From NCBI GenBank assembly GCA_951406725.2, contig OX597829.1:36332001-36396000 (forward strand): DNA of 64,000 nucleotides, in the 5' to 3' direction. The stretch comes from Octopus vulgaris (taxonomy: Eukaryota). Every line of letters begins with the position of its first letter. Positions within the stretch are counted from its first letter, which is position 1. Shown in pieces: positions 9,965 to 38,991 of the stretch. The notes under the pieces were generated by a model. That model was given only the letters and a program-made list of their open reading frames with translations, searched no databases and was not told the DNA's origin. Made by a program: the position numbers and the translations under genes.

Positions 9965-11320
9965 AGTTAGAGGTAACAATAAGTCTTCTATTCCTCCTTT
10001 ATTCAACGGACCTGAGGTCATGACAACATCTAATGATAAAGCAGAGCTCTTTGCTCAACTGTTTAGTTCTTACTCTATTCTCGATGACTCTGGTCATCCA
10101 CTTCCTGATGTTTTTCTCAAAACTGATAAACTGTTAGGCAGTTGTCATATTACTTCTGCTAAGGTTGCGGCCATTGTGACATGGTTGGATCCATGTAAAG
10201 CAACTGGACCTGATGGTATTCCAGTCGTTGTCCCTCAGAAGTGCTCTCCTGAGTTGTCTTCTGTCTCATCTAGGTTCTTCCGAAAGTGTATATCAGAATT
10301 TTATTTTCCTTCTTTATGGATATTCCGTACTGTTGTTCCTGTCTTTAAGAACTGTGGTGATCGATCTAATCCTCGTAATTATAGACCAATTAGTCTACTA
10401 CCAATCATCAGTAATGTTTTTGAGTACCTGATTAATGACTCTCTTGTGAAATATCTTGACTCAAATCGTTTATTATCCGACTCTCAATATGGTTTCCGTG
10501 CTGGACAGTCTACTGCTGATCTTCTCACTGTTATATCCAAGCGTGTTTATCGTGCCTTGAATATATCTGGTCAAGCTAGGGCAGTTGCTATTGATATCTC
10601 TAAGGCATTTGATAGGATTTGGCACGCTGGACTTCTATGGACGCTCCAATCCTTTGGTGTCAGGTTTCATGCTGAACATCATCTCTTCTTTCGTTTATGA
10701 CCGTAGAATCAAGGTTTTTCTTGATGGTCAATCTTCATCTAGTCACTCTATTAATGCTGGGGTTCCTCGAGGATCTGTCCTGGGCCCAACATTCTTCTTT
10801 TTTTCAATGATCTGCCTGATCATATCATCTGTCAGTTAGTAATCTATGCTGATAACTCTACTTTGTACTCTTGTTTGGAAAAATCTGAAGACTTGTCTGA
10901 TGAGGTTGAGATGGCTGCTAAACTTGAGAATGATCTTCGATCTATTGTTGAGTGGAGTAGGAAATGACTTGTAACGTTCAAATCCATCGAAAACTAAACA
11001 TCTTTCAATTAATCGCTTCAGAACATCCTTTCTTGCAATCGGTTTCGCCGGATGGGATTGACTTAACTGAGAGTCGTTCTCTCCGTTTCTTAGGAGCGAC
11101 TTTCAGTAATGATTTTTCTTGGAGGACTTACAATGAATCTATTGCCAAATCGGCTCCAATGAAGGTAGGCTCACGCCTTCGTTTGAGGAGTTATCTCACT
11201 CCTGAAACTATTATTTATCTTTAGAAGTCCACCACTCGCCCCTGCAATGTTATTGGCACTGATCTATCTTCTAAACTGGATTCACTGTCTTATCGTCGTC
11301 GTAAATTCCCGTGTACATAT
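9965..11320 (+). mobile_element. Decayed CR1/Jockey-group LINE reverse transcriptase fragment
   Basis: ORF 10020-10700 contains KATGPDGIP, NYRPISLLPIISNVFE, QYGFRAGQSTADLL and DISKAFDRIWH. It continues through frameshifts with GVPRGSVLGP and IYADN. Confidence 0.92.
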
Positions 11321-27399: not shown

Positions 27400-27735
<336 letters not shown>

Positions 27736-28490: not shown

Positions 28491-28542
<52 letters not shown>

Positions 28543-28686
28543 AATATAAGAGAGTGGTCACTATATTGCTCACTCTAGCACCAGTTAATCCAAAAGGTTT
28601 CAACCACGAAAATACATGCTTACCATGAAAGTCAGTACGATTGTTAGCTCACACGGACAGGGCAAATAAAAAATAACAAAAATACA

Positions 28687-28778
28687 GATTATTTTGGGAC
28701 AATTGTTTCGCTATTAATGAATTAAATGTAATTTTACTTACAAAAAAATCCATTTGTAGCTCGTCAGCCAAGACTATC
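28687..28778 (-). ncRNA. Type I hammerhead ribozyme, intact core (copy 1)
   Basis: GAUAGUCUUGG-CUGACGA-GCUA[long hairpin]UAGC-GAAA-CAAUUG-UC^CCAAAAUAAUC. All core nucleotides present, GUC cleavage triplet (cut between 28698 and 28697), palindromic stem III ACAAUUGU. Confidence 0.88.
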
Positions 28779-29221
28779 TGGATGAAATCCACTCAATCAC
28801 ACGCCAGATTTTACCATAACGATAAATACGCGTGTGGTTCAATTGATTACATCCGACGTTATAATTCAAATGCCCCAACCAACAGCGCGCCAAACTTTCA
28901 CGGAAAACAAATACAGCATTTAGAAATAAATGCAGCATAATTATAATTAATTAATAAGGGTGAGAGAATTAGATACTAATTTAATAGTATATTTATTCAA
29001 CACCAAGTGGCCTAGTGCTTCGAGAAACCTGGATTATTATAATATTTTATAACATATTATAATATTTTTACAAAATAAATATAAGAGAGTGGTCACTATA
29101 TTGCTCACTCTAGCACCAGTTAATCCAAAAGGTTTCAACCACGAAAATACATGCTTACCATGAAAGTCAGTACGATTGTTAGCTCACACGGACAGGGCAA
29201 ATAAAAAATAACAAAAATACA

Positions 29222-29314
29222 GATTATTTTGGGACAATTGTTTCGCTATTAATGAATTAAATGTAATTTTACTTACAAAAAAAATCCATTTGTAGCTCGT
29301 CAGCCAAGACTATC
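29222..29314 (-). ncRNA. Type I hammerhead ribozyme, intact core (copy 2)
   Basis: Identical to copy 1 except one extra U in stem II. Predicted cut between 29233 and 29232. Confidence 0.88.
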
Positions 29315-29391
29315 TGGATGAAATCAATATACTATTAAATTAGTATCTAATTCTCTCACCCTTATTAATTAATTATATATATATATATATA

Positions 29392-30086
29392 TATATACTA
29401 TTAAAAGTGAAGTTCAATCTTGCTTGCTTGCTTGTAATGCTACACAACCAAACCGGCACATAATTGGGAAGTACTTTGAAAGTAAAGTGTCCCTGAAATG
29501 TGAATAGAAACGAAATAAAACAAGTTTCGCGTAAATCGAACTAGTAGTTACTGAGATATTCGGGGTTTTGGGGTATAAATACCCAAATCGGTGTATAATG
29601 GGAAAATACTCCGAAAATAACTTCACGCCGAAAGGGAAAAAAAATCTCTAAACTTTCCTCTAGACACTTTATGATGGGCAAAGTAGTTTTAAGTGAAAAT
29701 GACTTTTTAAAATACAATAAATATTTCGTAAAAGACCCGTTCGTAATCTCGGTGTGAAATAGTTTTTTTTCGATAGGTTTCTTTCGAATGCATTCAGCGT
29801 ATCTCACCTCCAAAGATTTGACTGCTATTTCTAGCACGCCCTGCCACCACGTAACAGCTATTTTCGATAGAAGATCCGAAATACCTGTTACGTGGTAGCA
29901 GGGCGTGCAAGAAATAGCAGCCAAATCTTTCCTTTCTGGAGAAAGGAGCCGTTTATGCGTGATTTCGATGTCACATTTGTTGAAAGCATGCGCAATAACA
30001 TGGAAAACAAAAAAAAAATACGAAAGAAAATTCCGTTGCGAGAAACTCAGACTTCCCGGTAACCCAACGGGTCACGGATAATCTAG
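29392..30086 (+). mobile_element. Non-autonomous Helitron-like element
   Basis: 5' tatatactattaaaagtgaag...(gctt)n. 3' hairpin ccggtaacccaacgggtcacgg followed by ataatCTAG|t. Internal 115-bp palindrome at 29814-29928. Confidence 0.65.
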
Positions 30087-30102: not shown

Positions 30103-30889
30103 CAGGTTGCGGTGAATGAATTGTCGTCTAAATTACGCAAAAATGAAAATAACACTGATATCTCATCTTAACAGATATATTTACCAAAATTACATACAAA
30201 TATCTTGAAATACTAAAGAGTAAATTTATTCAATAAAATCACCATTTGGCTTCAAGCGTGGCCTCCAGAAGACTTCAGAATCTCCTGCAACTCTTCTGGA
30301 CGGTCTTCTTGTTTAAGTTAGTGAATGCTGCCATAATCCTTGCCTTCGTTCAACTTCCCACATTCATCTTCCCAAACAGCCTCAGACTCAACACAGAGGC
30401 CTACATTAAGGGCCTGGAGAAGGTAGTGCTACCCTGGGTTAAGAGGGTGGCTGCTGGAAGACCCTATGTCTAGCAACAGGACTGCATCATGCCACACAAG
30501 CAGGAGAACCCAGTCATGACTGTCAGACAATTTCTGTGACCGCATCACCCCAAACATCTGGCCAACTAACTCCTCAGGCTGCAAATGGATGGGGTACAGT
30601 TGAGCGAAAGACCAACAAAACTCCTTGTAACACCAAAGATGAAATGAAGGCAAGGATTATGGCAGTATTCACCACCTTAAACAAGGAGACCGTCCAGAAG
30701 AGTTGCAGGAGATACCGAAGTCGTCTGGAGGCCGTGGTTGAAGCCAATGGCGATTTTATTGAATAAAATTATACTTTAGTATTTCAAGATATTCTTGTGT
30801 AATTTTGGTAAATATATCTGTTAAAATGAGATGTCAATGTTATTTTCATTTTTGCGTAATTTAGACGACAATTTATTCACCGCAACCTG
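30103..30889 (+). mobile_element. Tc1/mariner-superfamily deletion derivative with ~245-bp inverted repeats
   Basis: ta|caggttgcggtgaat ... attcaccgcaacctg|tg. Transposase C-terminus YIKGLEKVVLPWVKRVAAGRPYV*QQD...WGTVERKTNKTPCNTKDEMKARIM...SRLEAVVEANGDFIE. Confidence 0.88.
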
Positions 30890-38393: not shown

Positions 38394-38711
38394 GCAATAT
38401 GCTTATGTATATTTGTATGATAGTTGGTAAATGTAAGGAGAAACGGTGAGTGATATATTGTAGGAATCTAGAAATAAAATCATTTTTTAAAATCAATTAT
38501 GTAAGAAAAGACGTGTAAAATAGTAAATTCTGATACTGATTTCGGACAAAGTCACTTTTTTGTGAGAAGAAGTATAATTGATTAAATTAACGCCTATACT
38601 TGACCGGATCATGACAGCTGAAATCTAAACCAGCGGGATTTGAACTCAGTAAGTAAAGCGACATGTTAGACTGCAAACCTTAGATATAATATTGATTATT
38701 ATCTCTTCAAG

Positions 38712-38991
38712 GTATGGTTCCAGAACAGACGTGCGAAATTTAGAAAAATGGAACGCGCAAAACAGCAACAGCAACAACAGCAGCAACAGAGCCAACAACA
38801 ACAGCAGCAACCACCCCAACAGAATCAACAGCAATCCCAGCAGAGTCAGCAGCAGCAACAGCAGCAGCAACAACAAAACACCAATAACACCAACAGCAAC
38901 AATGGGGTGAAAAGAGATATGAGTTCGCCTAACAACACCACCAACCACAGCAGTAATAAAGATAAAGCTAAAGCACTTGACGATGGGACCG
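38712..38991 (+). CDS. Phox2: Phox2 exon encoding the rest of homeodomain helix 3 plus a polyQ/N-rich region
   Basis: ttcaag|GTATGGTTCCAGAACAGACGTGCGAAATTTAGAAAA = VWFQNRRAKFRKMERAK, in phase with the upstream exon. Followed by 32 Q in 38 residues. Ends at a consensus donor g|gtaagt (phase 1). Read-through would stop at 39020. Confidence 0.93.

Follow-up and report, generated by a model that had tools for sequence, protein, structure and literature searches.

A young non-LTR retrozyme variant in the genome of Octopus vulgaris, recognised by its anatomy, with the insertion footprint of Penelope-like elements

The DNA analysed (the window) was a stretch of 64,000 nucleotides from Octopus vulgaris (contig OX597829.1, positions 36,332,001 to 36,396,000 of the forward strand). 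The insertion described here lies antisense in an intron with GT at 27643 and AG at 38710-38711; the homeodomain of the host gene has PHOX2B as its best match (E 3.9e-23). Unit positions were numbered U1-535, with U1 as the base after the predicted cut; site A is near unit position 161 and site B near unit position 291. Features are listed below in window coordinates (PLE, Penelope-like element).

27496..27642, plus strand: part of a Phox2-like homeobox exon upstream of the host intron (context only)
28493..28536, no strand: left (TA)n target
28537..29325, minus strand: main arm, 1.47 units, 3' end at site A (U161), into (TA)n (anatomy of locus L070)
28687..28777, minus strand: type I hammerhead copy 1, long stem II, predicted cut 28698/28697 (40.2 bits, E 2e-6, PLE-only model)
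28698..29232, minus strand: monomer of 535 nt bounded by the predicted cleavage sites, ORF-less and, when folded as a circle, strongly self-paired
28942..29071, minus strand: 130-nt 'tail' between both family-wide 3' end sites, U162-291 (insertion anatomy)
29222..29313, minus strand: type I hammerhead copy 2, predicted cut 29233/29232 (39.7 bits, E 3e-6, PLE-only model)
29326..29377, plus strand: second, inverted arm (U240-291), 3' end at site B, into (TA)n (repeat comparison)
29378..29397, no strand: right (TA)n target
38712..38760, plus strand: remainder of the homeodomain beyond the 11-kb intron (context only)

The insertion consists of 1.47 units of a 535-nt repeat and a 52-nt inverted arm, flanked on both sides by (TA)n, the setting already given by the first-pass annotation. 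That annotation had also described a 253-bp direct repeat at 535-bp spacing, which was found at 28537-28789 (253 bp) and 29072-29325 (254 bp); the sole difference between the copies is one A in a homopolymer. Its claim that the unit has no ORF held, the longest ATG ORF on either strand of the concatenated unit being 54 aa; the GC content is 32%. The terminal inversion, put at 51 bp, is a perfect copy of 28942-28993 with a length of 52 nt. What had been missed was its meaning: it is a second reverse-transcribed arm, with its end at a second fixed site. The window insertion was thus described as a 789-nt A arm (5' end at U444, 3' end at U161) and a 52-nt B arm. Elsewhere in the window, 29812-29930 holds a 57-bp inverted repeat (89%) with a 5-nt spacer, and two plus-strand stretches were noted, a 244-aa fragment at 9966-10700 that we take to be of a LINE-like RT and a presumably transposase-like fragment at 30443-30766.

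On the minus strand each repeat carries stem I (UUGG/CCAA, with extension), CUGACGA, stem II (GCUA/UAGC), GAA, ACAAUUGU and GUC, so that the complete type I hammerhead layout proposed for each copy was recovered in both. Cleavage was predicted at 29233/29232 and 28698/28697, the same positions as proposed before, with 535 nt between them. The GCUA/UAGC pairing of stem II stood; its size, put at ~55 nt, was corrected to 51-52 nt. A search with Rfam hammerhead models, which had been suggested as a check, matched neither copy: no hammerhead was reported in the window at the gathering score, nor at E<=10, and the long stem II is the likely cause. Both window copies scored ~40 bits with a covariance model made from 12 PLE hammerheads of the genome (next match, 22 bits), in agreement with the suggested PLE-type ribozyme. 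Stems I, II and III were 100% paired across 10 aligned sequences, and 6 of 11 pairs had changed on both sides; these sequences are related, and shuffle counts are therefore not probabilities. The palindrome pair is among those that covary, so the palindromic stem III, as had been claimed, is kept through compensatory change. The motif was classed as a type I hammerhead on its core (CUGANGA, GAAA, UH) and its three covariation-supported stems, and 0 of 43 locus-level variants fall within the catalytic core. Minimal stem III was calculated at +2.4 kcal/mol as a hairpin and -6.4 kcal/mol as an 8-bp duplex; since the hairpin is weak and the duplex stable, cleavage as a dimer is the mode expected from the model.

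The exact hammerhead pattern gave 1,036 matches genome-wide and the reversed control 0, so the window motif is not a chance occurrence. A pattern for long-stem-II hammerheads gave 4,260 matches (control 0), spread over several PLE subfamilies and the retrozyme. As Rfam does not detect these ribozymes, they have probably been undercounted.

Copies of the 535-nt unit were searched for in the genome. At least 235 matches were obtained from the 40 places scored out of 1,014 candidates, and the number of insertions genome-wide is estimated at roughly 260. In the 40 scored places the full-length matches are 98-100% identical, except one at 96%, and lie on many contigs, often in tandem; the identity is in line with the young insertion that had been proposed. 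By eye, 96 of the first 100 pattern matches listed belong to this retrozyme, in 25 places. A dispersed, multi-copy family of ORF-less 535-nt tandem units, each with a hammerhead, supports the retrozyme identity put forward earlier, on sequence grounds. The genome search that had been proposed for copy number, tandem arrays and Penelope ORFs yielded the first two; an RT-GIY-YIG ORF joined to the repeat was not found. The phage collection gave no match to the element.

The family bears on how the Phox2 position is to be read. The antisense position in the intron was verified; the link to Phox2 looks incidental, as the family is estimated to have a few hundred insertions in (TA)n, of which the window copy is one. 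Selection of this copy as an antisense regulator of Phox2, which its orientation in a Phox2-like intron and its two ribozymes might suggest, is extremely improbable: the copy has counterparts of 100% identity on four other contigs, its site is a normal (TA)n target of the family, it has no Pol III boxes, and the host transcript bears the non-catalytic strand. The intron position is probably incidental, and the window copy by itself is ordinary.

Sixty insertions were dissected, made up of the 40 best-scoring places and 20 taken by position on contig C1, not chosen by similarity (20 of the 25 places on C1, three others being already in the first set). Arm counts were made without the second fragment of L219 (5.4 kb away, same strand, next to Ns), and L144 and L170 were excluded from validation counts. 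Two arms were found in 42/60 insertions and one arm in 18/60; none of the 60 has a third arm. In all 42 two-armed insertions the 3' ends lie outward and the 5' ends meet; most of these junctions show an overlap of 0-6 nt or a short filler. Thirty-eight of these have one end at site A and the other at site B (27/30 in the first set, 11/12 in the second) and four have one off-site end; A+A or B+B was seen in 0/42. The 3' ends run into (TA)4 in 97/102 cases. The B arm is the longer in 25/42; that either arm can be longer speaks against an origin of one arm by folding back of the other. Read along either target strand, the sequence enters a cDNA-sense copy that starts at one site, and from this strand geometry we infer two target-primed events. 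Two independent primings, one per DNA strand, are considered likely with good confidence.

The 5' ends of the arms were also inspected. None of 102 arms starts at U1-2. An excess of 5' ends after the cut, considered as a sign of a cleaved linear template, was seen in the first set (12/70 in U1-31, p 7e-4; scan test 18/300), in an interval picked after inspection of that set; it was not replicated in the second set (2/33 against 1.9 expected; pooled 14/102) and was discarded. Seven 5' ends fall in the 8-nt stretch U91-98, just before the long central helix; this cluster was noticed post hoc and is possibly a reverse transcriptase stop.

Insertions span 1.0-16.4 units, and the longest single arm has 12.7 perfect units (60 insertions). 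Of the variants in the first 40 insertions, 46 are fixed across every covered unit of an insertion, whereas 9 are partial and 76 are single. Arrays like these might instead have grown after insertion by satellite-like duplication of DNA, or be assembly artefacts, which we consider improbable. Duplication is favoured by a four-unit variant pattern that repeats once in the long arm of L060 (G000:C1:158284900-158294899; two variants there occur in both arms) and by single variants that recur three units apart in L036, L051 and L058. However, variants within arrays are mostly singletons (the 76 single against 9 partial), and the dispersal over many contigs, the fixed 3' ends and the (TA)n targets require retrotransposition; growth at the DNA level may lengthen arrays but leaves the two-site rule unexplained. 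An assembly artefact is opposed by the presence of the repeat stretch in 20 sequencing runs of 12 studies, with four organism codes; no RNA run is on record among them, which is neutral as evidence.

PLEs of the same genome were then compared. A related ribozyme lies beside a GIY-YIG match, behind decayed RT and C-terminal GIY-YIG-like ORFs; its pattern has 608 genome matches (control 0). Among 140 scored of 11,494 RT candidates were intact ORFs of 970-984 aa and ~1,090 aa whose pLTRs also carry the long-stem-II hammerhead. In Pfam the ~980-aa protein had no match of its own; PF26215 was present in 20 of 31 homologues, alignment to a resident RVT_1/GIY-YIG protein was weak (over the RT motifs, 20% identity, E 0.018), and an 842-aa relative scored 0.96-0.98 with HTH_animal/GIY-YIG clusters. 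This resident family is, we presume, Nematis-like. The ends of these PLE insertions fall either about 37 nt or 125 to 160 nt beyond the cut. Nine of 10 two-armed PLE insertions combine a short end with a long one, and L208 adds another: its PLE insertion (804-2163), 580 nt from a retrozyme copy, has two arms that meet in a near-perfect palindrome.

The intact ~980-1,090-aa ORFs (L181-L192) have long asparagine-rich stretches between RT and endonuclease; such stretches have been described for rotifer Penelope elements, according to the available text of PMC3846280. A further young, TA-flanked PLE family (L101-L118, e.g. L104:768-4468) has an intact 781-aa RT-GIY-YIG ORF, preceded by another ORF that reaches 479 aa, and a minimal hammerhead-like motif with a UUGAUAA core.

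The retrozyme family shows the PLE insertion footprint, namely an inverted 5' arm, a one-sided tail and a (TA)n target. With the end rule of the resident PLEs, these support the earlier proposal of mobilisation by a Penelope RT/GIY-YIG protein, as far as sequence can tell, and we consider it very probable that the retrozyme is PLE-mobilised. The clade of the partner is thereby indicated, its subfamily not. Outside the ribozyme and ~30 nt after it, no likeness of the unit to PLE pLTRs was found (blastn; local alignment, 5 families), nor, in the 140 of 11,494 candidates scored, a 3' or tail sequence shared with a partner PLE, and site A lies 161 nt after the cut in the retrozyme against ~37 nt in resident PLEs. 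No PLE-retrozyme chimera was present in the loci screened. Two candidate partners were set aside: the unit resembles neither the 781-aa family, whose minimal ribozyme is a different one, nor the 842-aa family. L079 and L208, considered as physical links to PLEs, are independent neighbours, L208 being two separate insertions.

It had been proposed as an alternative that the repeat is two overlapping solo pLTRs, that is, an ordinary 5'-truncated end of an autonomous PLE in tandem-plus-inverted form. The tandem-plus-inverted build, the one-sided tail and the TA bias are typical of PLEs (PMC8557442 and PMC3846280, in the text available). Yet the unit has neither an ORF nor pLTR likeness outside the ribozyme, single arms reach 12.7 perfect 535-nt units, and in 0 of 60 insertions is an arm joined to any of five PLE reference families. 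This alternative was rejected as very improbable and is already largely refuted. By anatomy, the insertion at 28537-29377 is a real, young non-LTR retrozyme variant with a PLE insertion footprint.

Two forms of template were weighed for this PLE-mobilised retrozyme. Folded as a circle, the unit has an MFE of -142.2 kcal/mol, against -106.6 +/- 4.9 for 40 shuffles (z -7.3), and stems I and II are present in this fold; for three PLE pLTR segments of matching length, z was -0.3, 1.5 and 0.8. The 246 cleavage junctions crossed by the arms and the absence of arms that start at U1-2 also count in favour of a circle, as does the absence of third arms and of repeated junction pairs. Family variants do not significantly spare the circle fold (14 broken pairs against 17.4 expected, P 0.13; 0 compensatory). 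The 46 fixed, 9 partial and 76 single variants fit a monomer bottleneck followed by multi-round copying. Unit variants are mixed across both arms in L034, L037 and L060, for which a multimer or several templates are needed and a single monomer circle is insufficient. A circle as the main template is rated at somewhat better than an even chance.

The same family and PLE enzyme could also be combined with a linear, largely uncleaved multimer from existing arrays as template; the hammerhead would then be an inherited pLTR relic or a protein-assisted switch, with circles absent or a by-product. The variants common to both arms in the three insertions just named agree with this, as do the 246 cleavage junctions that the arms cross, the cost of the minimal stem III hairpin and the unprocessed RNA used by an anole PLE (PMC11167929, available text). 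Copying through a source junction, however, predicts a third arm or a repeated junction, and no junction pair is repeated and no third arm present in the 60 insertions. New haplotypes fixed over 10-16 units in both arms (L051, L060, L061) point to amplification after a monomer bottleneck, the folding of the unit is much stronger than that of PLE pLTRs, and the catalytic core is free of locus-level variants. A linear multimer as template is held to be rather unlikely.

The unit is covered by contigs from three runs that are presumably RNA. Neither reads that join 28698 to 29232 nor divergent RT-PCR, both earlier put forward as checks, would be diagnostic of a circle, because tandem genomic copies give the same junction. 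In one run (X11), 20 A>G and 31 T>C places were counted on window 28545-29325, the corresponding counts being 2 and 5 for a DNA run listed under a different organism code; the clusters, on both strands, are as dsRNA hyper-editing of two-armed insertions would give, the DNA control being unmatched.

The following course is proposed. Tandem arrays would be transcribed, and the transcript would be cleaved at GUC as a double hammerhead, with pairing of the 8-bp palindrome as modelled. A host ligase would join the monomer ends into an RNA circle, the probable template. A co-resident PLE RT/GIY-YIG protein, acting as a dimer, would nick both strands of the (TA)n target, and one cDNA would be primed per target strand, one at U161 and one at U291. 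Multi-round reverse transcription would give multi-unit arms, and the two cDNA ends would be joined by short microhomology or filler. Taken as a whole, the account (a PLE-copied retrozyme, two fixed primings, a probably circular template) is judged probable. Its most specific form, in which a Penelope dimer works on one ribozyme-made circle at two sites 130 nt apart and makes one rolling cDNA per strand, is put forward tentatively, at a little under even chances. If true, every insertion would be a twin, asymmetric, rolling-circle TPRT event; the PLE inverted arm, the one-sided tail and the tandem pLTR would be explained in one step, and the mobiliser of one animal retrozyme would be identified.

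The retrozyme class, the inverted build of PLEs and the one-sided tail are already known. PLE mobilisation of animal retrozymes and circular templates have been proposed from co-occurrence and ribozyme likeness (PMC7229834, PMC4209133, bioRxiv 10.64898/2026.07.22.740005, each in its available part); the last of these supports a PLE origin of retrozymes by co-occurrence and phylogeny, and its text contains neither 'octopus' nor 'tail'. No octopus or cephalopod retrozyme was found in the open-access literature, where the supplements of PMC7229834 and PMC4209133 may list octopus motifs, nor a hammerhead stem II of such length, a point on which supplementary lists may bear, nor a count showing one site per arm. 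Here a young family itself bears the PLE insertion footprint, and its genome also encodes intact candidate enzymes that share both the ribozyme and the end rule; for a single reconstitution one can therefore name the template, the start sites, the target and the enzyme. With a near-strict rule of one site per arm, the PLE tail described as often one-sided becomes a prediction about mechanism, as two primings, one per strand, would explain a one-sided tail. Whether PLEs mobilise retrozymes, and how the PLE tail arises, can thus be tested directly; the system is not of a new kind.

Four known systems were compared, from the available parts of the papers cited. Metazoan non-LTR retrozymes, with circles in coral, mussel and axolotl and PLEs named as candidate mobilisers (PMC7229834), are alike in the ORF-less tandem unit with one type I hammerhead, low GC, a self-paired monomer with the ribozyme left open, multi-copy arrays and co-resident PLEs. 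Their size of 150-450 bp, a descriptive range and not a mechanistic criterion, compares with 535 nt in octopus. Stem II has 4-8 bp in metazoan retrozymes, whereas that of the octopus unit is branched and has 51-52 nt, and the octopus ribozyme is of the resident PLE type in place of the canonical loop-loop type. The two-armed insertions with two fixed 3' ends are a feature absent from the available metazoan retrozyme accounts. Circles have been shown for those retrozymes and are proposed for the octopus unit.

EN+ PLEs with a C-terminal GIY-YIG (PMC8557442, PMC3846280, PMC4209133) are alike in the partial tandem and inverted 5' copy, the one-end tail, the (TA)n bias and the palindromic stem III; their hammerheads have been described with a helix II of 6-8 bp, and dimers and circles were proposed for them (PMC4209133). 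The octopus unit differs in having no ORF. Its tail is 130 nt and that of resident PLEs about 100-120 nt, against the 30-40 bp described for PLEs, and the one-sided tail, found often in PLEs (PMC8557442, PMC3846280), is a near-strict rule in the octopus retrozyme. Non-autonomous Chlamys PLEs such as MRC1 (PMC8557442) are likewise non-autonomous, multicopy, head-to-tail PLE derivatives. The MRC1 type resembles its partner at the 3' end and most Chlamys have no hammerheads, as far as the available text goes, whereas the octopus unit clearly shares the ribozyme only. Poseidon PAc of Anolis (PMC11167929) is alike in its predicted dimer, its AT-rich target and its two internal RT start sites, which bound the tail, with both strands extended; its ribozyme is dispensable in vitro and its RNA is used uncleaved. 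The start sites of PAc are the same between strands in vitro, whereas octopus insertions use each site once.
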